A stretch of 15,037 bases of DNA from Candidatus Methylomirabilota bacterium (GCA_046726415.1 JBKPAK010000139.1:1-15037), one strand, 5' to 3'. Positions 101 through 11,758 are shown, numbered from the stretch's first letter. Numbers and translations are program-made. Notes: generated by a model not told the origin, from the letters alone.

Positions 101-316
101 TCAGGCCGCTGCGCCGCCGCCGTCGGCGTGCAGCGTGGATCCGGTGATGAACCTGGACAGTGCGGCCGCGGCACGCGCGCCACGGTCTGCGTCGCGGCCC
201 GTGATGATCACGCTCGCACCGGCTTGGGCCAGCAGCCGCGCCGTCTCGAAGCCGATGCCCGCCGTGCCGCCCGTGACCAGTGCCGTCTGCCCGGCCAGCT
301 CGGCTGCCGCGCTCAA
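101..316 (-). pseudogene. Classical short-chain dehydrogenase/reductase with a large internal in-frame deletion
   Basis: TTG start overlaps the upstream TGA (TTGA, 316-313). The N-terminal Rossmann motif LAGQTALVTGGTAGIG...GASVIITGRD is joined directly (at about 158/157) to the canonical SDR C-terminus SRFITGSTLHADGG. Only 71 aa; the YxxxK catalytic region is missing. Confidence 0.78.
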
Positions 317-853
317 TGCCGGGCTCCGAGCCAGTCGGCGAACCGGGTGGAGCCGGGTGGCGCCGTCCCCGGTGACCAGGCTGGTCTGCGTGACGGGCGT
401 GCCGAAGTAGGTGGCCGCGGGGTCGACTACGACGGGCTTGTCGACGCCCTGTGCGGCGAGCACGGCGCGGGCCATGTCGGCGAACGACATCTTGTCGGGC
501 CCACCGAAGTCGAGGGTGCCGTCACGGGTTCGGCCGTGGCGGCGCGGGCGACCTCGCCGCCACGTCGACGGCAGCGACCGGTTGGATCAGGGCGTCGGGG
601 GCGCGCACCTCGTCGCCGACGACCAACGAGCCGGTGATCGCCTCGGTGAACTCGTGGAACTGCGTGACGCGCACGATCGTCTACGGCAGACCGGAATCGA
701 CGATCGTCTTCTCCTGCACGACCTTGGCCCTCATGTAGCCACTCTCGGGCAGGCCGTCCACGCCGACGATCGACAGCGCTACGTAGTGCCCCACGCCTGC
801 CGCCCTCGCCGCGGCGACGAGGTTGGCCGACGACGCGGTGAAGAACGCGAGAA
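313..853 (-). pseudogene. Atypical SDR / NmrA-like NAD(P)H-binding protein, 5'-truncated and frameshifted
   Basis: Joining frames gives LAFFTASSANLVAAARAAGVGHYVALSIVGVDGLPESGYMRAKVVQEKTIVDSGLPYTIVRVTQFHEF...PDALIQPVAAVDVA / EVARAATAEP / DGTLDFGGPDKMSFADMARAVL...YFGTPVTQTSLVTG / STRFADWLGARH*. Frameshifts near 556, 524 and 352. The N-terminal Gly-rich NAD-binding motif is absent. Confidence 0.82.
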
Positions 854-908
854 GAGCATAGAGTCTTCCGTCGTTGGTTCTCCGTTTTTTGGAAGAAGTC
901 TTTGGAGT

Positions 909-1187
909 TCACGCCGCCCCAGCGTACTCGTGGGGGAACTCTCGCTCCCTGAGCTTGACCGAAGTGCTCATGATGCGATGACCGAAGTCGGTGACCCGCC
1001 AGCGACGAGAACGTGGGATTTTTGCAACGAGGCCGTAGACGTGGAGCCGGTGCAGGAGGCGGCTGAGCTTGGCACTTTGGCGCCTCGGATCGCCGCTGAG
1101 GCGGATGGCGGTCGCGGCCAGCCTGGCGCGGAGATCGCGATTCGCGAAGCCGTGGACAGCATACTCGCCACTCATGAGCGCGGTGAA
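909..1187 (-). mobile_element. C-terminal winged-helix remnant of a putative transposase-like protein
   Basis: FTALMSGEYAVHGFANRDLRARL...SAKLSRLLHRLHVYGLVAKIPRSRRWRVT matches the 'GF.NRDLR...L.RL..HGL..K.P....Y.VT' C-terminus that I recall from a poorly characterised family of about 500 aa, often labelled MarR-like or hypothetical and behaving like an IS. It is followed by an AT-richer 50-nt tail that abuts the truncated NmrA gene. The family assignment is from memory. Confidence 0.5.
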
Positions 1188-1984
1188 GGGCTGGCAGCTC
1201 CCGGCCCTCGCTGCCAGAAAGGTGAGAACTTCTTGCGCGAAGGGGTCCGGTGCCTCTTTGCCCGGTGCCCTTGGCCTCCGAGCACTACAATTCGGCTATT
1301 GGGCAACAATGCATGAAGGTTCTCCGCGTCGGTTCTCCTGAATGGGGGACTGTCGCCACCGAGGAGAAGCAGCGTGGGTGTCTGCAGGGTGCCAAAGCGC
1401 TTGGGATCGAAGAGGTAGCCGCTCAAAGCTTGCAGTTCACGCGGTATCGTGTGGACGGCCGCGATCCACGCGGCCCACGTCGGCCGCGCTTGGGCGGCGG
1501 CGATCTTCTCGGGCGCCGTCTTGAGTACGTCACGGAGAAAGAGTAGAAGGGCCTGTTCCCGGTCCCCCGCGTCAACCAGATGTCGCATTCGGGAGCTGAA
1601 TTCCGCGGAACCGAACGGCCTCTCCGAGGGTATGACTGGTTCATAGAGTATCAGCCGACGAATGTTGGCGGTCAGGAGAGCGGCTTCTAGGGCACACGTT
1701 CCACCCAGGGAACGGTCGACGACATCCACGGTGCTCCCAATGCCGTCGACAACCGCGGCGACATCCTCCCACTCGCGTTCGAGGGCATACGCGTCGGCGT
1801 CGCCACTGCGCCCCCGCCCGCGCCGATCCATGGCATACACGCTGCCGTGTTGCTGAAGCGCAGGCGACACTGATGTCCAGAGAGTATGGTCATCTGTTGC
1901 CCCGTGCACAAGTACTAGCGGTGTCCCCGAGCCACTGCGCCAATATGCGATGGGCGTGCCGTCTTTTGAGACCACTGTCTTCAT
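1172..1984 (-). pseudogene. Alpha/beta-fold hydrolase, probably degenerate
   Basis: GGAGG RBS; SKDGTPIAY, LVLVHG, MDRRGRGRSGD, PTLLLLGGDS and GQGH motifs. The nucleophile elbow reads DRSLGG instead of GxSxG. After GQGHRA (about 1257) the family-type C-terminus EAPDPFAQEVLTFLA lies in another frame. Confidence 0.8.
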
Positions 1985-2033: not shown

Positions 2034-2132
2034 GTCGAACGATCAAGCTCACCTGCCGGGGCCGCCTGAGTGAGCTACGAACCCGGCAAAACCGGAATGA
2101 CGGCCGCGGTCAGGTGCAGCGGCTGGTTCGGC
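2034..2132 (-). other. attC: Integron attC-type recombination site (99 bp)
   Basis: Minus strand: R'' GCCGAAC - 5 nt CAGCC - L'' GCTGCACC (8 nt) - TGACCGCGGCCG...CGGCCCCGGCA - L' GGTGAGC (7 nt) - 6 nt TTGATC - R' GTTCGAC. The arms pair with two extrahelical bases (positions 2117 and 2110). It lies 28 nt after a stop codon and 49 nt before the next ATG on the same strand. Confidence 0.8.
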
Positions 2133-2160: not shown

Positions 2161-3069
2161 TCATTGGTCCAACCATTGCAGCCGACGGGGCGTGAAGTTC
2201 AGAGTCTCTTTCGCCTTCCCGTTTGTCGCCCCGCGGAGCTTCGTGCCGTAGTACACGGCATCCTCGCCGCCCCGTTCTCGCCCCTCCTGTTCCGTCACCC
2301 GGGGCGGGGGCGGGGCCCCGACCCACCGCGCGAACGCCGGTAGCCAACGGCTGACCGGGGACGGGTCGTCATCAACGAGATGATATACGCCCGGCGGGGC
2401 CGTCAGGGCGGCGGCCGTTGCGACCGCCGCGTCCTCGATGTGGACCCACGACCAGACCCCTTCACCCGCGCCGATGATCGCGAGTTCCTGCTTCCGCGCT
2501 TGGTCCGCCGCTGCGCCGTCCGGGTTGTACCAAGTTCCCGGCCCGTAGAAGAACCCGTACCGCAGGGCGACCCCTTCGATACCCTCCACGTTCAGCACCC
2601 GCGACTCCAGCTCGGCGTAGGTGCGCGCGCTCGCCGCCACGCGGGGGCTGGCATCGACCGCCAGGCCCTCGGACTCATCGGCCAGCCCGCTACCCGGTTT
2701 GAGGAAGAAGCCGCTGGACTGCTGGATATACCGCCGCACCCCGCACGCCCGCGCGGCGCGGTGGAGGTTCCCACCGCCTTCGAGGCGCAACTTCCGGTCT
2801 CCGGCCGCGGCGGCGGCCATTTCCGACGGGTGCCGGGGCAACGCCGTCAACTCGTCGATGACGACTTGCGCCCGTGACTCCTGAAGCGCCCGTTGCAGTG
2901 CCGGTGCGTCGAACGCGCTCACCTGGGCGACGGCCGCGCCGAGGCCCGTGATGACCCGTGCCCCGGCGTCGGAGTTGGTCATGCCTGTTACGGCGTGACC
3001 GTTACGGACCAACTCGGCGAGGAGCGGGCGGCCGATCGCCCCACTCGCCCCCGCGACGAAGATGTTCAT
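2161..3069 (-). CDS. NAD-dependent epimerase/dehydratase family protein (atypical SDR)
   Basis: 302 aa; IFVAGASGAIG Rossmann motif, LRYGFFYGPG, WSWVHIEDAA, YHLVDDDP; AGGAG RBS; intact. Confidence 0.92.
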   Translation of the reverse strand: MNIFVAGASGAIGRPLLAELVRNGHAVTGMTNSDAGARVITGLGAAVAQVSAFDAPALQRALQESRAQVVIDELTALPRHPSEMAAAAAGDRKLRLEGGGNLHRAARACGVRRYIQQSSGFFLKPGSGLADESEGLAVDASPRVAASARTYAELESRVLNVEGIEGVALRYGFFYGPGTWYNPDGAAADQARKQELAIIGAGEGVWSWVHIEDAAVATAAALTAPPGVYHLVDDDPSPVSRWLPAFARWVGAPPPPRVTEQEGRERGGEDAVYYGTKLRGATNGKAKETLNFTPRRLQWLDQ

Positions 3070-3103
3070 GTCGGTCTCCTAAGGTGTTACGGTCTCGTCG
3101 GGG

Positions 3104-3526
3104 TTACTTTTTCTTCGGCTCGGGAATGGTCACCTGCTTGGCGTCCCGCGGGTGCAGTATGACGGCCAGGACGCGGGTCTTGCCCTTCGCGGCCGGGTTC
3201 TTCGCCACCCGGTGTAGGCTCCCGGTCGGCTCGTAGAACGTCTCACCCACTTTGAGCACTTTCGCGGGCTGGTCGTCGATGGCCCACTCGAACGCGCCCT
3301 CCAGAACGTAGCCGAACGCCGGGCCGGCGTGGCGGTGCGGCACGTCCGCCTGGCCGGCTTCCAGCGTCACCTCCTGGAATGTCGCCTTCGCCTCCTTGCC
3401 GTCCAGCTTCTCGACGATGTCCCGCGCGGCGAGGGTCGTCACCTTCACACCCTCGTGTTGGGTCGCAGTCACACCGGCGACTCCCAAACCGATGCCAGCC
3501 GCGAGCGTCACCAGGGTCCGGATCAT
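3104..3526 (-). CDS. Cupin-domain protein with N-terminal signal/anchor
   Basis: 140 aa; hydrophobic leader, cupin motif 1 PHRHAGPAFGYVLEG and motif 2 GETFYEPTGSLH; GGAGG RBS. Confidence 0.9.
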   Translation of the reverse strand: MIRTLVTLAAGIGLGVAGVTATQHEGVKVTTLAARDIVEKLDGKEAKATFQEVTLEAGQADVPHRHAGPAFGYVLEGAFEWAIDDQPAKVLKVGETFYEPTGSLHRVAKNPAAKGKTRVLAVILHPRDAKQVTIPEPKKK

Positions 3527-3592
3527 GGCTTATCCTCCAAATAGGAGAGTGGGAAACTGTGCGGGCCATAGATGGGTTCGGCGTACTCGTCA

Positions 3593-3744
3593 TCAGCCGG
3601 CACCGTCTTCCGGCAGGGCCGCGAGGCAGGCGCGGAACTCCTCGGCACTTCCGGGCACACTTCGAGGTGTTCGGGCCCCCGCCGGAGCGGCTCCGGGACG
3701 GGCTGGCGGGCGGCGACAAGCTCGGCGTAGCGCGGCGCGTGCCC
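3593..3744 (-). pseudogene. Remnant of a small zinc-binding anti-sigma-like (zf-HC2/ZAS) protein
   Basis: GHAPRYAELVAARQPVPEPLRRGPEHLEVCPE is followed in the adjacent frame by AEEFRACLAALPEDGAG*. Restoring one T (GAA[T]GT GCC, about 3648) gives HLEVCPEC = HxxxCxxC. No credible start codon. Confidence 0.6.
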
Positions 3745-3970
3745 GTAGCCGCCTGGGCGAGGCGGTGTTGCGTGGGACAGGTGGACCGATGGTGAAGTCA
3801 GAGCCGTTGTAGTCCGCATCCGTACAACCGCCATTGGAGTTGACCCGGTTTGGGAGACGGTGCACTGCTAGCGATTTCACGCCGTGCCCACCATGTGACG
3901 GTGCTGCTGCTCGTAGCGGACGGGCGAGTCGTACGCGAGAGCCGAGTGGCGACGGTGCGGGTTCTAAGCC

Positions 3971-4132
3971 ATGACGGACCTCAAGCGAGAGAACCGGCGC
4001 CTGCGAGGCGAGCTGGCCCGCGCCCGCGAGGATATCGCCGATCTGCAGGCGCGTTTGGCCTACGCGCTTCAGAAGATTCGCGAGCTGAGTACGCGCATTC
4101 CTCGACGGGAACCATACTCGACCCAGTCGTGA
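3971..4132 (+). CDS. Possible small coiled-coil protein (53 aa; not in the ORF track)
   Basis: MTDLKRENRRLRGELARAREDIADLQARLAYALQKIRELSTRIPRREPYSTQS*; regular heptads (L4/L11/A18/L25/A32/L39 and N8/L15/I22/L29/I36). No clear RBS. Confidence 0.4.
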   Translation: MTDLKRENRRLRGELARAREDIADLQARLAYALQKIRELSTRIPRREPYSTQS

Positions 4133-4396
4133 GCGGCGCGCTCGAGCGCTCCGCGCGTGGAAGGAGCGATGCCAGTGTCTGTCCGAACGTCACGAGCGCG
4201 GACGGAACGGTACTACCGACCACGGATGTGCGGCACCAGGCACACATCGGATCGGCGGCGGCCTTCATTTTGCGGCGCATCTCTCCGCAGTTCTTCGGTA
4301 GATTCATGGGGCGCCCGCTGGGGCTCCATCGCCTTCGCCCAGTCACCTGGTGGGCGCGCTAGTCGCTAGTCGCACTCCACTAAAGGAGGACAGGTC

Positions 4397-4906
4397 ATGA
4401 GCGATGTGTGGCGCTTGAGGTTGGTCTCGCTCGTCGCACTCCTGCTGCTTTTCATAATGCCGGGCCTCGCGGTCGCTGGATGGCGAGTGCTTCCCGCGAC
4501 CGGGTTTGTCGCCGACCCACTCCATATCCGTCTGATTCACACGATCGGTGGGCTGTGGATCAGAACCGATCAGAACGGCGACCAGTTTCTTGTCCACCAG
4601 GGGGTCCCGATCGTCCTAGGCGATGTCATCGATGCCATGGCCGTCTGCTACCGCGCCGACCCGGGGACGTGGATCACCGCCATTGGACTCGTGGAGTTTC
4701 TCGGCGTGGGGGACAGCACCGGCAAAAGCCGACACTTCGACCGTACGGACCTGAAAAGCCCGACTGACAGCCGAGGACACCGCCGCCAGACTCGAGCGCC
4801 TGGCGGCCACGTTGAGACGCGCCTGATCGGTGCCAAGGTGGCCGATCGAGGCTTTGTTCGTGCAGGAGGTCGCAGTATGAACGGCGGTACCCAAAGCGCT
4901 GGATGA
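4397..4906 (+). CDS. Secreted hypothetical protein; C-terminus after about 4770 probably not native
   Basis: Strong RBS TAAAGGAGG; Sec-type signal peptide (WRLRLVSLVALLLLFIMPGLAVA|G). Protein-like sequence runs to DLKSPTDS, then an Arg/Gly-rich tail runs into the IS91 fragment. Confidence 0.62.
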   Translation: MSDVWRLRLVSLVALLLLFIMPGLAVAGWRVLPATGFVADPLHIRLIHTIGGLWIRTDQNGDQFLVHQGVPIVLGDVIDAMAVCYRADPGTWITAIGLVEFLGVGDSTGKSRHFDRTDLKSPTDSRGHRRQTRAPGGHVETRLIGAKVADRGFVRAGGRSMNGGTQSAG

Positions 4907-5108
4907 CTGTGACCGCCCCGCATTGGCCATCGCGAAGCCCCTCGCTCGCCGCCCTTCGCCGCCGCCAGCCGAAGACGACCTGGATGAAGACCGCGAGCAC
5001 GTCGCGGCACAGCGCAGCGTCGAAGGCGAGCTGGTAGCGTAGGGACCACGGCAGCGAGAGGACCCACTGGCGCACCGGGGGGACGTCCGGGATCACCCGG
5101 TCGACCAG
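4890..5108 (-). mobile_element. Internal fragment of an IS91-family (HUH, rolling-circle) transposase
   Basis: LVDRVIPDVPPVRQWVLSLPWSLRYQLA...GAVTVIQRFG is the characteristic IS91/ISCR-type segment. It stops just before the expected LNxHxH (HUH) motif and lacks the upstream Zn-binding cysteines. Confidence 0.85.
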
Positions 5109-5376
5109 GAAGGTCATCCTGCCCGCCTCGCTTCCACACCTGTTCAGCGGCCTTCGGGTGAGCCTGCCCGTGGCGCTCATCACCGCCTTCACGGCGGAGA
5201 TGGTGGCCGGCGGCGGCGTGGGCGCCGCGCTCATGTTCGCGCAGCGCTTCTTCGAGACGCCGACGGTCTTCGTCTACCTGTTGGTGATGCTCCTCACCGG
5301 ATTCGTGCTCGACAAGGTGCTCCTCGTGGCTCGCGCCCGCGCCGTACGCTGGCACGAAGAGGCGGCCGAGGAATAA
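5107..5376 (+). pseudogene. 3' fragment of a NitT/TauT/SsuC-type ABC transporter permease
   Basis: RKVILPASLPHLFSGLRVSLPVALITAFTAEMVAGGGVGAALMFAQRFFETPTVFVYLL...RW: the region following the EAA loop of TauC/SsuC permeases. The 5' part is missing. Confidence 0.85.
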
Positions 5377-6631: not shown

Positions 6632-8134
6632 TCACGCCTCCTGGAATGCCTCCTCCCGCGTCTTGCGGAACGCGGGCAGGAGCACGGTGCACAGGAGCAG
6701 GACCGCGGCCACCAGCAGGACGGCGCTGATCGGCCGAGTGAGAAAGACGAGGGGATCGCCACGCGATAAGAGCATCGCCCGGCGCAGGAACTCCTCCATC
6801 ATCGGGCCCAGGATGTAGCCGAGCAGCATCGGCGCCGGCTCACACTCCAGCTTGGCGAAGATGTAGCCCAGCAGCCCGAACAGCGCCATCAGGTAGACGT
6901 CGAAGGTGGCATTGTTCAGGCTGTACACGCCGATGGCGCAGAACACCAGAATGGCCGGATAGAGCAGGTGGTAAGGCACGCTGACCATCCGGACCCAGAG
7001 GCCGATCAGGGGCAGGTTGAGCACGAGCAGGAGAAAGTTGCCGATCCACATCGAGACGATCAGGCCCCAGAACAGCGCGGGCTGCTCGACCATCACCGAG
7101 GGCCCGGGCTGAATGCCCTGGATGATCATGGCGCCGATCATCAGCGCCATCACCGGGTTCGATGGGATGCCGAGGGTGAGCATCGGGATGAACGACATCT
7201 GGGCCCCGGCGTTGTTGGCCGCCTCGGGCCCCGCCACGCCCTCGATCGCCCCCTGGCCGAAACGGCTCGGGGTCTTGGAGACCTTCTTCTCCAGCGAGTA
7301 GGCGGAGAAGGAGGCCAGAGTCGGGCCACCGCCGGGTAAGATTCCCAGGGCGGCCCCGAGCGCGGTCCCTCGCAGAATCGGGGCGATGATCCGCTTGAGG
7401 TCCTGTTTGGTCGGCATCAGCCCGGTGACGCGCTTGACCGTCAGCTCGCGCGTCCCCTCGGTCTCCAGATTGCGCACGATCTCGCCCACGCCGAACATGC
7501 CCATGGCGACGATCACGAAGCCGATGCCGTCGGCGAGCTCCGGCAGCCCGAGCGTGTATCGCTGCGCGCCGGAGGTGACGTCGGTGCCGATGAGCCCCAG
7601 GAGCAGGCCGAACACGATCATCCCGATGGCGTTCAGCAGCGGGCCGTGCGCCATCACGATCGACGCCATGAGCCCGAGGACCATGAGGGAGAAGTACTCG
7701 GCGGGGCCGAACTTGAGGGCGAGGGTGGCCAGGGGCGGGCCGAAGGCGGCCACCAGCAACGTGCAGACGGTGCCGGCGAAGAACGACCCGATCGCGGCCG
7801 TGGCCAGGGCGACGCCCGCGCGGCCCCGGCGCGCCATCTGATAACCGTCCATCGCGGTGACCACGGACGAGGTTTCCCCGGGCAGATTCACCAGGATCGC
7901 CGTGGTGGAGCCGCCATACTGCGCGCCGTAGTAGATCCCCGCGATCATGATCAGGGACGAGACGGGCGGCAGCGTGAAGGTCGCGGGCAGCAGCATGGCG
8001 ATGGTGGCCACCGGCCCCAACCCCGGGAGAACGCCGATCGCCGTCCCCAGGACGACGCCCACCAGACAGTAGAAAAGGTTGACGGGGGTGAATGCCGCCT
8101 GCAGGCCCAGCCCGAGATTGGCGAGCAGTTCCAT
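6632..8134 (-). CDS. tctA: Tripartite tricarboxylate transporter large membrane subunit TctA
   Basis: 500 aa; GVLPGLGP, YYGAQYGGSTTAILVNLPG, GVAGPEAANNA, PMLTLGIP signatures; GGAGG RBS. Confidence 0.97.
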   Translation of the reverse strand: MELLANLGLGLQAAFTPVNLFYCLVGVVLGTAIGVLPGLGPVATIAMLLPATFTLPPVSSLIMIAGIYYGAQYGGSTTAILVNLPGETSSVVTAMDGYQMARRGRAGVALATAAIGSFFAGTVCTLLVAAFGPPLATLALKFGPAEYFSLMVLGLMASIVMAHGPLLNAIGMIVFGLLLGLIGTDVTSGAQRYTLGLPELADGIGFVIVAMGMFGVGEIVRNLETEGTRELTVKRVTGLMPTKQDLKRIIAPILRGTALGAALGILPGGGPTLASFSAYSLEKKVSKTPSRFGQGAIEGVAGPEAANNAGAQMSFIPMLTLGIPSNPVMALMIGAMIIQGIQPGPSVMVEQPALFWGLIVSMWIGNFLLLVLNLPLIGLWVRMVSVPYHLLYPAILVFCAIGVYSLNNATFDVYLMALFGLLGYIFAKLECEPAPMLLGYILGPMMEEFLRRAMLLSRGDPLVFLTRPISAVLLVAAVLLLCTVLLPAFRKTREEAFQEA

Positions 8135-8146
8135 GGCCGGCCTCCC

Positions 8147-8608
8147 TCAGCGGCCGAGCCAGGAGCCCACCGGGGGGATTGGTAGCCCCAGCCCCCAGAC
8201 GAACACTGCGACGCTGAACACCGCGAGGCCGACAGCCAGGGCGATGGATGGAGCCCATCGGAACATGGCGCTGGCCGACGCGCTCAGCACCACGAGCGCG
8301 ATCACCGCGACAGCGAGCCCAGCGCCGCGCACGAGGAGGCCGAACAACACGGTGGCCCCGAGCACGATGGCCAGGTTTTTCAGCGAGAATCGGCCGATCG
8401 GTGTTCCCGGCTGCGTGAACGCCCGCACCACGGCGATCAGCCCGATGACCGCGAGCAGGTAGCCGAGCACGGTCGGGAAATACGCCGGCCCCATCTTCGT
8501 GCCCGTTCCCATGGCATAGTCGCGGCCGATCACCACGGCGCCCAGCCCGAAGGCCAGATAGATCAGGCCGGTCCAGAAATCCTTGGGGTTTCGGATGCCC
8601 GAGGGCAT
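8147..8608 (-). CDS. tctB: Tripartite tricarboxylate transporter small membrane subunit TctB
   Basis: 153 aa, 4-5 TM segments, KDFWTG and MGPAYFP motifs, between tctC and tctA. Confidence 0.95.
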   Translation of the reverse strand: MPSGIRNPKDFWTGLIYLAFGLGAVVIGRDYAMGTGTKMGPAYFPTVLGYLLAVIGLIAVVRAFTQPGTPIGRFSLKNLAIVLGATVLFGLLVRGAGLAVAVIALVVLSASASAMFRWAPSIALAVGLAVFSVAVFVWGLGLPIPPVGSWLGR

Positions 8609-8620
8609 AGCGCTGTCTCC

Positions 8621-9595
8621 TCAGTCGGCGTAGGCGCCGGCGCTCTTGATGATCGGACCCCACTTCTCGATCTCCGCTTTGAGATGCGCTCGCAGCGCCT
8701 CCGGCTGGGCTCGGTCGTCGCTCTCCGGCTCCGTCCCCAGTTCGTTGAACCGCTGCTTGACCGTCGGGTCCTTCAGCGCCGCGCGAAGCGACGTGGCGAG
8801 CTTGTCGATGACCGGCTTGGGCGTGTTCTTGGGGGCATAGAGGCCGTGCCAGACCGCGACCTCGAAGTTGGGCAGCCCGGCCTCGTGGAGCGTGGGCACG
8901 CTGGGAAGGGACGGCACGCGCTTCCGGGTGGTGACTCCGTAGACCTTGACCTTGTCCGCCCTGATCTGACTGGTCGTGTTGGTGGTCTGATCGCACATCA
9001 GATCGATCTGGCCCCCGAGCAGGTCGTTCATGGCGGGGCCCGTCCCCTTGTAGGGCACGGTGGTGAGGTCCGTCGCGATGGCACTCATGAACAGCAGTCC
9101 ACACAGGTGGGAGGCCGCGCCGAGGCCGGCGTTCCCCAGCGAAACCTTGGTCTTGTTGGCCTTGGTGTAGGCGATCGCCTCCTTGAGGTCCTTGGCGGGA
9201 AATTCCCTCTTCGCCACCAGGGTCATCGGCACGTCAGTGACGAGGCCGATGGGCTCGAAGTCCTTGATCGGGTCGTAGGCGAGCTTGCGGTAGAGGGCCG
9301 GTGCCGTCGCCATCCCGATGTGGTGCAGGAAGATCGTATAGCCGTCGCCCGCCGCGCGCGCGACCCGCGCCGCTCCGATGGTGCCGCCGGCGCCGCCGAC
9401 GTTCTCCACGATGATCTGCTGCTTCAGCTGATCGCCCATGGCCTTGGCGATAAGGCGACCGACCGTGTCGGTCGGCCCGCCGGCCGCGAAGGGTACGATC
9501 AGGGTGATCGGCTTCGCGGGGTATTGCTGTGCGGACGCCGGCGACATCACCAGGCTCATCACGCCCACGACCAGCGCCACCTGTCTTCCGATCAC
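8621..9595 (-). CDS. tctC: TTT substrate-binding protein TctC/Bug (BugD-like subgroup)
   Basis: GTG start at 9595 after AAGGGAG; 324 aa; signal peptide ending ASA|QQYP; VPFAAGGPTD, GAGGTIG, YKGTGPA, LMCDQTTN. The 704-aa ORF in the track is this gene over-extended upstream. Confidence 0.93.
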   Translation of the reverse strand: MIGRQVALVVGVMSLVMSPASAQQYPAKPITLIVPFAAGGPTDTVGRLIAKAMGDQLKQQIIVENVGGAGGTIGAARVARAAGDGYTIFLHHIGMATAPALYRKLAYDPIKDFEPIGLVTDVPMTLVAKREFPAKDLKEAIAYTKANKTKVSLGNAGLGAASHLCGLLFMSAIATDLTTVPYKGTGPAMNDLLGGQIDLMCDQTTNTTSQIRADKVKVYGVTTRKRVPSLPSVPTLHEAGLPNFEVAVWHGLYAPKNTPKPVIDKLATSLRAALKDPTVKQRFNELGTEPESDDRAQPEALRAHLKAEIEKWGPIIKSAGAYAD

Positions 9596-9633
9596 GGCGT
9601 TCTCCCTTTCTGCCCCGGACGCTGCGTACCCTC

Positions 9634-10605
9634 CTACTTCGTGTCCACGAGGCTCTCGGGTAGCTTGATGCCTTTCTCCTGGTAGTACCGCACCGCCCCG
9701 GGGTGTACGGGAATCGGGCTCAGGACGATGTTGTCGGCCTTGACCTCTCGCGCGCTCCGGTGCGCCGCCGTCAGGATGTCGAGCCGCTCGAACGTGGCCT
9801 TGACCACCCGATAGACCAACTCGTCGGGAAGGTCCTTGCGGACCGCCATGAAGTTCCAGAGCGTCAGGGTGGTGATCGGATCCTTCTGGTTCCGGTAGGT
9901 GTTGGCGGGGATGGCGCCGGTGGCGAAGAACGGGTGCTTCCTGGTGAACGCTTCGGCCACGTCGGGCGGGACCCCGAAGAGGTTGATCGGCTGCTCGGCG
10001 GCGATCTCGGCCACGAGTCCCCACGGCAGCCCGATCGCCGATCCGTGAGCGTCGAGCACGCCGATTCTCAGCTGGTTGTCCAGGTAGGCCAGGCCCGAGT
10101 TGACGACGCGCGGCTTGACTCCGGCCGCTTCGAAAATTCGCGGCCAGTAGGTGGCCGGCGTCCCCCCCACCGGTCCCACGCCGACGCGCTTGCCGTTCAG
10201 ATCCTGGATCGAGCGGATCCCGGTCTTCTGCAGGGCATACATCTGGAAGTACGACGTGTACATGGGGAAAATTGCGCGGGCGTTGCGGTACCGCTTTCCC
10301 TCCGCCCAGCCGAGCCCGTTCCATCCCTCGTAGGCTGGGGCGGTGGTGACCATCCCGAAGTCGAGCACGCCGGCCTCGAGCAGCTTCATGTTGCCGACCG
10401 GGCCGCCGGTCAGCTGGACCGTGCTGTCGAGGTCCAGGGCTACCCTCAGGACCTCGGCGAACCCGCCACCCCAGAGGTAGTACACGCCGCCCAGCGAGGC
10501 CGCCCCGATCGTGACCGGCTTCGCCACACCCTGAGCGCGCGCGGTGAGAGGGAGCGCCAGGACCGCGACCAACAGGAGTGGCACCGCGAACGTTCGGTTT
10601 CGCAT
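9634..10605 (-). CDS. TAXI-family TRAP transporter solute-binding subunit
   Basis: 323 aa; signal peptide (ARA|Q), TIGAASLGGVYY, TGGPVGNM, DLNGKRVGVGPVGG, IPVHPGAVRYYQEKG; AAGGAG RBS. Confidence 0.93.
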   Translation of the reverse strand: MRNRTFAVPLLLVAVLALPLTARAQGVAKPVTIGAASLGGVYYLWGGGFAEVLRVALDLDSTVQLTGGPVGNMKLLEAGVLDFGMVTTAPAYEGWNGLGWAEGKRYRNARAIFPMYTSYFQMYALQKTGIRSIQDLNGKRVGVGPVGGTPATYWPRIFEAAGVKPRVVNSGLAYLDNQLRIGVLDAHGSAIGLPWGLVAEIAAEQPINLFGVPPDVAEAFTRKHPFFATGAIPANTYRNQKDPITTLTLWNFMAVRKDLPDELVYRVVKATFERLDILTAAHRSAREVKADNIVLSPIPVHPGAVRYYQEKGIKLPESLVDTK

Positions 10606-10640
10606 CGCCGCTCTCCTTGCCGAACAGACTGACGGGCCAG

Positions 10641-10669
10641 GCTATACCCCGCGGTCCCGCGCCAGTCAA
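10641..10669 (-). promoter_or_regulatory. Sigma70-type promoter for the TAXI-tctCBA-monooxygenase operon
   Basis: Minus strand TTGACT - 17 nt - TATAGC, 35 nt upstream of the TAXI ATG, in otherwise very GC-rich DNA. Confidence 0.65.
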
Positions 10670-10777
10670 ATGGGATCGTTCCTCGGTTACCACGCGGGCG
10701 CCACTCGGGCTACCCTGGGAGCCCGCTAAATTCACCGCGTCCGGCCGCCGAGAGCGCTCGGACGAAGGGGGGACGAC

Positions 10778-11758
10778 ATGGGCTTCTGGTCAAGTCTGGC
10801 TCGACTCCTCGTTGGGGCGACGGCGCTCGGACTGGTGACCGCCGGCGCGAATGCCCAGACGTATCCCAGCAAATCGATCCGCATGGTCGTCCCCTTCCCG
10901 CCCGGTGGCACCACGGATATCCTCGCCCGCACCATTGGGCAGAAGATGGCGGAAGATTGGGGCCAGCCGGTGGTGATCGACAATCGGCCGGGAGCTGGCG
11001 GCAACATCGGCTCGGACCTGGTGGCCAAGGCCCCTCCGGACGGCTATACCCTCTTGATGGGAACGATCTCCACCCATGCGATCAACCCCAGCCTGTACAA
11101 GAAGTTGCCGTTCGATCCCGCCAGAGATTTCGCGCCGATCAGCCGGGTGGGCACGCTTCCCAACATCCTGATCGTGCACCCCTCCGTCCCGGTGAAGTCG
11201 GTCAAGGAGCTCATCGAGCTGGCCAAGAGCAAGCCGGGCGATCTCAATTTCGCCTCCTCCGGCGTCGGCACCTCGCTGCATCTCTCCGGAGAGCTGTTCA
11301 ACAGCATGGCCGGGGTGAAACTGGTGCACATTCCCTACAAGGGCAGCTCGCCCGCCCTGGCTGATCTCCTGGGCGGACAGGTCAAGATCATGTTCGACAA
11401 CCTGCCGTCGGCGTTACCTCACGTGAAGGCCGGCAAGCTGAAGCCGCTGGCCGTCACCAGCACTAAGCGGGTGGCCGTGTTGCCCGAGGTGCCGACGGTC
11501 AGCGAGTCCGGCCTCCCCGGGTTCGAGGTGACCTCCTGGTTCGCCGTCTACGCTCCGGCGAAGACGCCCAAGGACATCGTCACCAAGCTCAACGGCGAGA
11601 TCGTGAAGATACTGAGAAGCGCCGACGTCAAGGACAAGCTCGCGCAGTTAGGCGTGGACGCAGCTCCCACCACGCCGGAGGAGCTGGCCACCTTCGCGAA
11701 GGCCGAGACCGAGAAGTGGGGAAAGGTCGTGAAAGCCACCGGCGCCTCCGCCGACTGA
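10778..11758 (+). CDS. tctC: Second TTT substrate-binding protein (TctC/Bug family), divergent and orphan
   Basis: 326 aa; signal peptide ANA|QTYP; VPFPPGGTTD, NRPGAGGNIG, PPDGYTL, HIPYKGSSPA. Confidence 0.95.
   Translation: MGFWSSLARLLVGATALGLVTAGANAQTYPSKSIRMVVPFPPGGTTDILARTIGQKMAEDWGQPVVIDNRPGAGGNIGSDLVAKAPPDGYTLLMGTISTHAINPSLYKKLPFDPARDFAPISRVGTLPNILIVHPSVPVKSVKELIELAKSKPGDLNFASSGVGTSLHLSGELFNSMAGVKLVHIPYKGSSPALADLLGGQVKIMFDNLPSALPHVKAGKLKPLAVTSTKRVAVLPEVPTVSESGLPGFEVTSWFAVYAPAKTPKDIVTKLNGEIVKILRSADVKDKLAQLGVDAAPTTPEELATFAKAETEKWGKVVKATGASAD

Follow-up and report, generated by a model that had tools for sequence, protein, structure and literature searches.

The 99 nt at positions 2034–2132 (minus strand) of contig C139 are, as judged by their sequence, a genuine integron attC site—a stranded relic of a known kind and not a new system. 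The window, that is, the whole stretch of 15,037 nt that was analyzed, is identical with this contig and belongs to a draft genome of an uncultured, soil-type Candidatus Methylomirabilota bacterium. Very probably, this bona fide attC is the 3′ site of a cupin–epimerase cassette, is followed by a hydrolase cassette, and represents together with them what is left of a decaying two-cassette array. The identity of the site as an attC rests on its architecture, on covariation, on siblings located in co-oriented arrays and beside intI genes, and on breaks of homology at the R′ box.

The site lies in the 176-nt gap that separates two minus-strand ORFs (2161–3069 and 1172–1984), at the 3′ end of the former, epimerase-like ORF, whose stop codon is located 28 nt before R″. 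Read directly on the minus strand from 2132 to 2034, it features the order R″–5 nt–L″...L′–6 nt–R′. The R″ box GCCGAAC (2126–2132) is followed by the spacer CAGCC (2121–2125) and by GCTgCACCTGaCCGCGGCCG (2101–2120), which comprises L″ and the 5′ arm of the stem. Two bases of this arm, G2117 and A2110, are unpaired and correspond to positions 16 and 23 counting from the first base of R″. The variable center of 36 nt (2065–2100) differs in length and sequence between sites. The 3′ arm CGGCCCCGGCAGGTGAGC (2047–2064) ends in the L′ box GGTGAGC (2047–2053) and leads over the spacer TTGATC (2041–2046) to the R′ box GTTCGAC (2034–2040). Hence, the site combines pairing of L″ and L′ with extrahelical bases and unpaired spacers of unequal length (5 versus 6 nt), and R″ and R′ form an imperfect inverted repeat around AAC...GTT; these triplets are kept in the sibling sites with the exception of one deleted A. 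The R boxes differ from RYYYAAC/GTTRRRY at one position, the fourth. Six of their seven positions pair on the top strand, and the seventh forms a T–G wobble in the fold of the bottom strand. No run of T follows the stem on its 3′ side. The preliminary description had read the 99-bp R″–L″–L′–R′ layout on the minus strand exactly in this way, with the same spacings and the two extrahelical bases, and it was likewise correct that the site has the orientation of both flanking genes and that its cores deviate from the consensus yet stay complementary.

In terms of attC nomenclature, the minus strand of the window would be the top strand and the plus strand the recombinogenic bottom strand. Folded as a single strand, the plus strand forms the expected attC hairpin, in which the arm facing the AAC triplet bears both bulges; on the coding strand, the bulges share the arm with AAC. 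The plus strand is favored by 2.1 kcal/mol (−23.7 versus −21.6 kcal/mol) and in its R box a T–G wobble takes the place of the C–A of the minus strand. According to the accessible text of PMC5027507, bulges opposite AAC mark the bottom strand, which also tends to be the more stable one. The folding z-scores of the 99-mer amount to −2.07 for the plus and −1.75 for the minus strand, and to −0.54 for 126 nt folded as DNA and −0.75 for the whole gap folded as RNA. For the latter two, folded in context, the energies are not significant; folding energy alone is weak evidence, and the z-scores are modest. In vivo, the plus strand would be expected to fold so that an R box and an L box are separated by an unpaired spacer, with two extrahelical bases in the L box and a variable tip. 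According to the established model, this hairpin would be bound by an integron integrase and cut between A2039 and C2040. This corresponds to a predicted crossover between G2040 and T2039 on the minus strand, or A|C of the AAC triplet on the plus strand, a rule taken from the accessible text of PMC5027507.

A DNA search of the genome with the 99-mer yields 32 matches at E ≤ 10, of which four are real and the remainder have E ≥ 0.24. The four are the window site itself and three siblings on contigs C301 (94% identity), C87 (77%), and C131 (74%). Nhmmer agrees with this result, giving four matches at E ≤ 3.9e-20 and all others at E ≥ 0.12. In the four-way alignment, 95.1% of 103 cells are paired (26 pairs), compared with 23.5 to 44.1% when the 3′ partners are slid by one to three columns. 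Compensatory changes occur in five of the 26 pairs—for example, CACCTG/CAGGTG, CAGCCG/CGGCTG, and CAGCAG/CTGCTG—and five such pairs are reached in six of 500 shuffles; overall, the observed pairing and covariation values are reached by one to six of 500 shuffles. Hence, the structure is kept while the sequence varies, in a set of four sequences of which two are 94% alike. Both unpaired columns are invariant across the four sites, the window site included, and the same two positions are also unpaired across an alignment of 17 sites. The C301 copy lacks one A of the AAC in R″. No Rfam family reaches its threshold in the window, and at E ≤ 10 two chance-level matches are located in 1900–2300.

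Two covariance models were built, R1 from 4 sequences and R2 from 17 non-redundant sites, both seeded with the window site and its siblings. R2 amounts to a taxon-specific attC model, an approach that is established according to the accessible part of PMC8352920. The window site scores 121.3 bits with R1 and 69.6 bits with R2 (E 3e-16), being itself part of both seeds; support that is independent of the seeded models comes from the adjacency of the family to intI and from the layout of its arrays. At least 31 sites are present in the genome at E ≤ 1.7e-5, with 150 of approximately 17,949 first-look candidates scored. Same-strand arrays hold 21 of the 31 sites: 11 on C319, three each on C177 and C9, and two each on C133 and C131. 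In addition, one site on C132 adjoins an integrase, one on C241 adjoins an integrase fragment, and eight contigs carry one site each, the window site included. Some of these singles are located within 600 nt of a contig end (C299:585, C326:330). The family thus features same-orientation arrays adjoining an integrase, and the window copy itself is single.

When aligned, the genome sites have the appearance of textbook attCs. In R″ they read GCCGAAC, GCCTAAC, or GTCTAAC, and in R′ GTTCGGC, GTTAGGC, or GTTAGAC; each site has one bulge in L″ and a second one 7 nt further, the centers vary, and whole sites span 65 to 108 nt. Twelve ORFs in the arrays are supported by Pfam. All of them are co-oriented with the attCs, ten stop within approximately 70 nt of one, and they include GNAT acetyltransferases, methyltransferases, a CPT-like kinase, Mrr, an ankyrin protein, and a BAAT thioesterase. 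One cassette of C319, approximately 3 kb long, carries two genes, so that a multi-gene cargo, which the preliminary description had considered unusual upstream of the window site, has a counterpart in the same genome. With filters off, a search of the whole 15 kb finds no second attC in the window, the next best match scoring 15.2 bits. In 80 foreign loci (646 kb), R2 gives no match at default filters, and with filters off nothing above 16.8 bits in 11 of the 80, where R2, as a clade-tuned model, may miss foreign attC types.

These arrays also bear on the idea that the element is a REP/MITE-like palindrome, or an intergenic terminator or attenuator hairpin, that resembles an attC. The element is situated between two co-oriented genes and can fold, its z-scores are unremarkable, and Rfam gives no match for it, all of which would suit such a palindrome or hairpin. 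However, the family forms same-strand arrays with a spacing of 0.5 to 3 kb that adjoin intI here and in at least 11 other published genomes of the family, its sites score 19 to 24 bits on the reverse compared with 45 to 75 bits on the forward strand, and the stem is not followed by a T-run. The random orientation of copies that a REP/MITE family would display—raised in the preliminary description—is contradicted by the same-strand arrays and the adjacency to intI, and a chance resemblance to an attC is hardly credible.

The integron integrase profile TIGR02249 has 26 matches in the genome and identifies three intI loci there; none of the 26 is on C139, in agreement with the earlier statement that the window contains no integrase. 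All three loci are on other contigs and are disrupted as assembled. The intI of C132 (3715–4658) scores 324.5 bits over profile positions 83–315, whereas its N-terminal part is in another frame, with a one-base frame change near 3975. The product of this locus aligns with VchIntIA/Vibrio cholerae IntI4 (2A3V) over residues 92–320 at an E value of 1.7e-59, and the alignment takes in the stretch following the central catalytic region of IntI proteins. The intI of C9 (41704–42647) is split across two frames at profile position 167, and that of C101 (2098–3039) has two in-frame stops. The genome has integrons, and none of its three intI genes is intact as assembled. In the classical layout, intI and the array are divergent. 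In C9 (41704–45558) and C132 (3715–5757), attCs are located just downstream of intI and co-oriented with it; the intI fragment of C241 is divergent from its attC and represents the one divergent case (G000).

A draft of this kind raises the question of whether the site still belongs to a functional integron whose array was merely broken by assembly. The genome consists of 352 contigs with 4.66% contamination, the window contig ends 2 kb downstream of the site, beyond which a further site might lie, several of the single sites are within 600 nt of contig ends, and draft genomes do split integrons (PMC9024848, accessible part). On the other hand, the 13 kb upstream are core-like and free of attCs, with a Tct transporter, an acyl-CoA dehydrogenase, and a GC3 of 0.84 to 0.93; the hydrolase cassette is visibly broken; and all three intI loci are disrupted. 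In addition, the C301 variant, which is 96% identical, extends another 12.5 kb downstream without an attC. C139 and C301 may represent two strains instead of two loci. An integron that still works is very improbable on this evidence; the relic of an array remains the preferred reading, and the site is probably inert now while still being structurally intact.

On the downstream side, an alpha/beta-hydrolase gene (1172–1984, minus strand; Pfam Abhydrolase_6) starts 49 nt after R′ and represents the second cassette, which would begin at the R′ core of the window attC. Its GC3 of 0.66 compares with 0.66 to 0.77 for array genes and 0.84 to 0.93 for core genes. None of 60 other genomes of the family carries a relative of this gene at E ≤ 1e-40. 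A metagenome scan yields six relatives, and the two closest of them, on loci L169 and L166, are cassette genes. L169 (73% over 115 aa) features two attCs of 49.3 and 41.5 bits, with the gene starting approximately 45 nt after the second R′, and in L166 (64% over 244 aa) an attC of 44.3 bits follows the stop codon at a distance of approximately 60 nt. L169 has in front of its gene another attC than the window, yet gene and leader follow R′ in both, which is what the shuffling of cassettes predicts. The stretch of 5′UTR and gene that L169 and the window have in common begins just after R′. In the leader of the window gene (1985–2033), the hairpin CTCCACT-GTCAG-AGTGGAG overlaps with its 3′ arm the GGAGG ribosome-binding site 8 nt before the ATG, and a similar ...CAGTGGAGG... 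precedes the ATG of L169. L166 further carries at 991–1121 the 5′ part of a group II intron (Rfam RF02005, 115 bits, truncated at the contig end), 34 nt after its attC and on the same strand.

The 3′ end of the hydrolase gene is disturbed. The L166 protein aligns only to residue 244 (window 1253), and the native-like C-terminus continues in another frame; a frameshift is located near 1253–1260, and the reading frame passes without a stop from hydrolase-like into element-like residues. The latter belong to a fragment (851–1197, minus strand) of a multi-copy ORF, namely its 3′ third, which tblastn aligns to residues 382–496 of a 499-aa ORF on C32 (15099–16598). Full or partial copies of this ORF are present on C303, C160, and C306, and a more distant one on C27. 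As read from these alignments, the hydrolase cassette is frameshifted, and the multi-copy element would have replaced its native end and its own attC. The C32 ORF has no match in Pfam or NCBIfam; the designation as an insertion sequence was set aside for this reason, and the ORF may be the gene of an undescribed mobile element.

On the upstream side, two genes would form the cargo of the cassette whose 3′ recombination site is the window attC: a cupin of 140 aa (3104–3526, minus strand; Pfam Cupin_2, 1.3e-13; GC3 0.88) and an NAD-dependent epimerase/dehydratase-family protein of 302 aa (2161–3069, minus strand; PF01370, 9.2e-18; GC3 0.84). The latter scores 215 bits with NCBIfam NF058621, under the 400-bit cut-off of this profile. 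Its nearest named record is L081 of a Candidatus Rokubacteria MAG (96% amino acid identity), followed by L082 of a Frigoriglobus MAG (90%), L083 of a Fimbriiglobus MAG (87%), and L084 of a Planctomycetaceae MAG (87%). The pair of cupin and epimerase is kept at 75 to 87% nucleotide identity in L083, L084, L085, and L095. In L083, L084, and L095, the similarity stops at the stop codon of the epimerase and no attC follows; L085 shares a few bases more. In L082 (88% nucleotide identity in the epimerase), the similarity proceeds past the stop codon into a homologous attC that reads GCCGCAC, CAACC, GCTGCACCTGACC onward. In the attC of L082, the L′ arm is missing, and directly after GTTCGA the similarity to the window stops. 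Homology to other loci breaks at R′ on both sides—at the end of the segment that is shared with L082 and at the start of the one that is shared with L169.

Two further copies come from the genus of the window. L072, from a same-genus genome, matches the window segment 3180–2057 at 94% identity, starting in the middle of the cupin; its attC contains an insertion within the spacer, breaks off before L′ at window position 2057, and receives no R2 score. The best match of the window TctA in that same genome is only 76% identical. With the TctA pair taken as best matches of putative orthology, this difference makes the cupin–epimerase segment look recently shared. The copy on C301 is 96% identical over window 3092–1916; window 155–1915 is absent from this contig. 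Positions 1–68 of C301 are an inverted copy of 147–213, which may be an assembly artifact at the contig end. Among the four related attCs, only that of the window is intact.

Upstream of the cupin, ORF 3523–3834 (minus strand) had been described as an anti-sigma remnant. It has no match in Pfam or NCBIfam, and the anti-sigma assignment is thus not confirmed. The remnant character is retained, since nucleotides 3558–3744 match the start of a 609-aa ORF located upstream of the cupin in L083. The homology to planctomycete loci, which reaches past the cupin into the remnant ORF, is more suggestive of a chromosomal segment than of a compact cassette. An R′-like sequence that could mark the upstream junction of the cassette was found neither by eye nor by model in 3070–4400.

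The first 5.4 kb or so of the contig are a patchwork that begins with an SDR gene whose start runs off the left end and contains stretches repeated elsewhere in the genome (3972–4122, 4366–4769, and 4891–5108). A fragment of an ISCR-like transposase (4674–5273, minus strand; NCBIfam NF052416, 9.8e-13, 47 bits compared with a 925-bit cut-off, profile positions 115–189 of 509) bounds the island on the side opposite the multi-copy element. On the opposite strand, part of its span is shared by a fragment of an ABC-transporter permease (5038–5376; GC3 0.92), a core gene that seems to have been cut by incoming DNA. Genes are core-like from 5403 on. The block with the attC lies in this patchwork together with the ISCR-like fragment and the other repeats. 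Further along, a Tct transporter cluster (6632–11758) comprises TctA (6632–8134), TctB (8147–8620), a TctC on the minus strand (Pfam match in ORF 8621–10735, frame 9634–10641 supported by GC3), and a divergent second TctC (10778–11758). A gene that runs off the contig end (13579–15036) features zinc ribbons, an adenylate/guanylate cyclase domain, and an AAA_16 ATPase domain.

The preliminary description had interpreted the site as a relic of a cassette array or a CALIN-like element. The relic is the best-supported history, whereas the class has to be changed. IntegronFinder 2 requires at least two attCs for a CALIN, according to the accessible part of PMC9024848, and the window has one attC in 15 kb and no integrase. 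A single attC with a CDS and with no other att site or intI nearby corresponds to a SALIN, defined in bioRxiv 10.1101/2022.09.11.507474 (accessible text) as a single attC lacking an integron-integrase.

For such a site, an origin other than array decay has to be weighed: an integrase could have inserted a cassette, or a circle of two cassettes, into a non-integron site by attC × attG recombination, with no array present there before or moved by a transposable element. This origin would account for a single attC that has no att site or intI within 13 kb upstream; SALINs are common and the route is demonstrated (bioRxiv 10.1101/2022.09.11.507474, accessible text); and intact IntI genes exist in the clade, such as one of 462 bits in a same-genus genome. 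However, the DNA that directly follows R′ is a cassette gene and not host DNA, fragments of mobile elements bound the block on both sides (851–1197 and 4674–5273), and neither an upstream G|TT junction nor an empty site was found among relatives that are too divergent for synteny. In same-genus genomes, the TctA part is matched at only 66 to 76% and the acyl-CoA dehydrogenase has no match, so that no empty site is definable by synteny. An insertion of this type is therefore unlikely. The remains of an array are the better account: the downstream neighbor is a cassette, and a broken one, and the block is enclosed by debris of mobile elements.

A more far-reaching and doubtful proposal is that the locus may preserve steps of cassette birth and spread across phyla, an attC having been gained once by a chromosomal operon that then moved to another phylum. 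Versions of the cupin–epimerase operon with a homologous attC are known from one Frigoriglobus MAG and as three copies from the genus of the window, and versions lacking an attC from the Planctomycetota loci L083, L084, and L095. In a quick IQ-TREE phylogeny (SH-aLRT supports, midpoint root), the epimerases of the window, C301, and L081 group together, with L082 next (supports 81–88), and this group is nested in a fully supported group of seven with L083–L085, all Planctomycetota; support is weak for the subgroup that the attC-bearing copies form within the attC-less ones. In L084, a GTTCGGC core (approximately 2825–2835) is located 14 nt after the epimerase stop, and L085 has a short GCATAAC...GTTATGC hairpin after the stop in AT-rich DNA (approximately 1665–1700; R2 12.8 bits). 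Both may be chance or attC remains. If they are remains of older attCs, they imply repeated loss and argue against a single gain. If the proposal were true, comparison of the cupin–epimerase alleles could reveal the way in which cassettes originate.

Beyond the genome of the window, R2 matches 55 of 61 genomes of the family at E ≤ 1e-4, or 53 of 59 without the unpublished G011 and G037. TIGR02249 scores above its curated cut-off in 23 of 61 (21 of 59 without these two), and many of these integrases are full-length and uninterrupted. Among the matches listed, 11 published genomes of the family feature intI followed within a few kilobases by co-oriented attCs, namely G036, G051 (two loci), G057, G061, G054, G031, G033, G072, G044, and G045 besides G000, a count that draws on 150 of 658 attC matches. 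The titles and abstract openings of the literature found by full-text search treat no integrons of this phylum (Rokubacteria, Methylomirabilota). The window site led to an unreported integron-rich clade. Since attC sites and stranded single sites are already well described, the element itself adds little; its value is that of a clean and checkable case of an attC recognized from raw sequence. In addition, the cupin–epimerase cargo, which is found with an attC here and also without one in another phylum, offers a small natural data set on the origin and decay of cassettes.

Integrons of the 'inverted integrase group' have the Treponema-type layout. The clade is likened to this group (PMC3575428, accessible part) by layout only, with intI located upstream of the array and co-oriented with it, whereas the window site has no integrase beside it. 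Among the 59-base elements of sedentary chromosomal integrons described in the accessible text of PMC5027507, attCaadA7, attCoxa2, and VCR2 have the same AAC/GTT inverted cores, spacers of 5 versus 6 nt, and the extra base in the L box, followed after 7 nt by another extrahelical base. The bulges of the window site carry the same numbers from R″ as G16 and T23 of attCaadA7, the numbering being matched by label only. Like the known attCs of that source, the site has a variable tip and bulges opposite the AAC of the bottom strand, and it stands at the 3′ end of a co-oriented ORF; in both, the bottom strand is the more stable one and has a G–T wobble where the top strand has C–A. Unlike known attCs, the fourth core position of the window site is G/C and not Y/R, and the unpaired base at position 16 of the bottom strand is C, whereas the sites tested in the accessible text of PMC5027507 have G. 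With 99 nt, the site belongs to a subfamily of approximately 100 nt that exists beside sites of 65 to 80 nt in the same genome, and neither an integrase nor a second site is nearby. With SALINs and CALINs, it has in common an attC with a CDS and no intI or other att site in the vicinity; here, mobile-element debris is present on both sides. For many SALINs, direct attC × attG recombination is the proposed origin (bioRxiv 10.1101/2022.09.11.507474, accessible text); in the window, the downstream neighbor is a second, broken cassette, which points to the decay of a longer piece.
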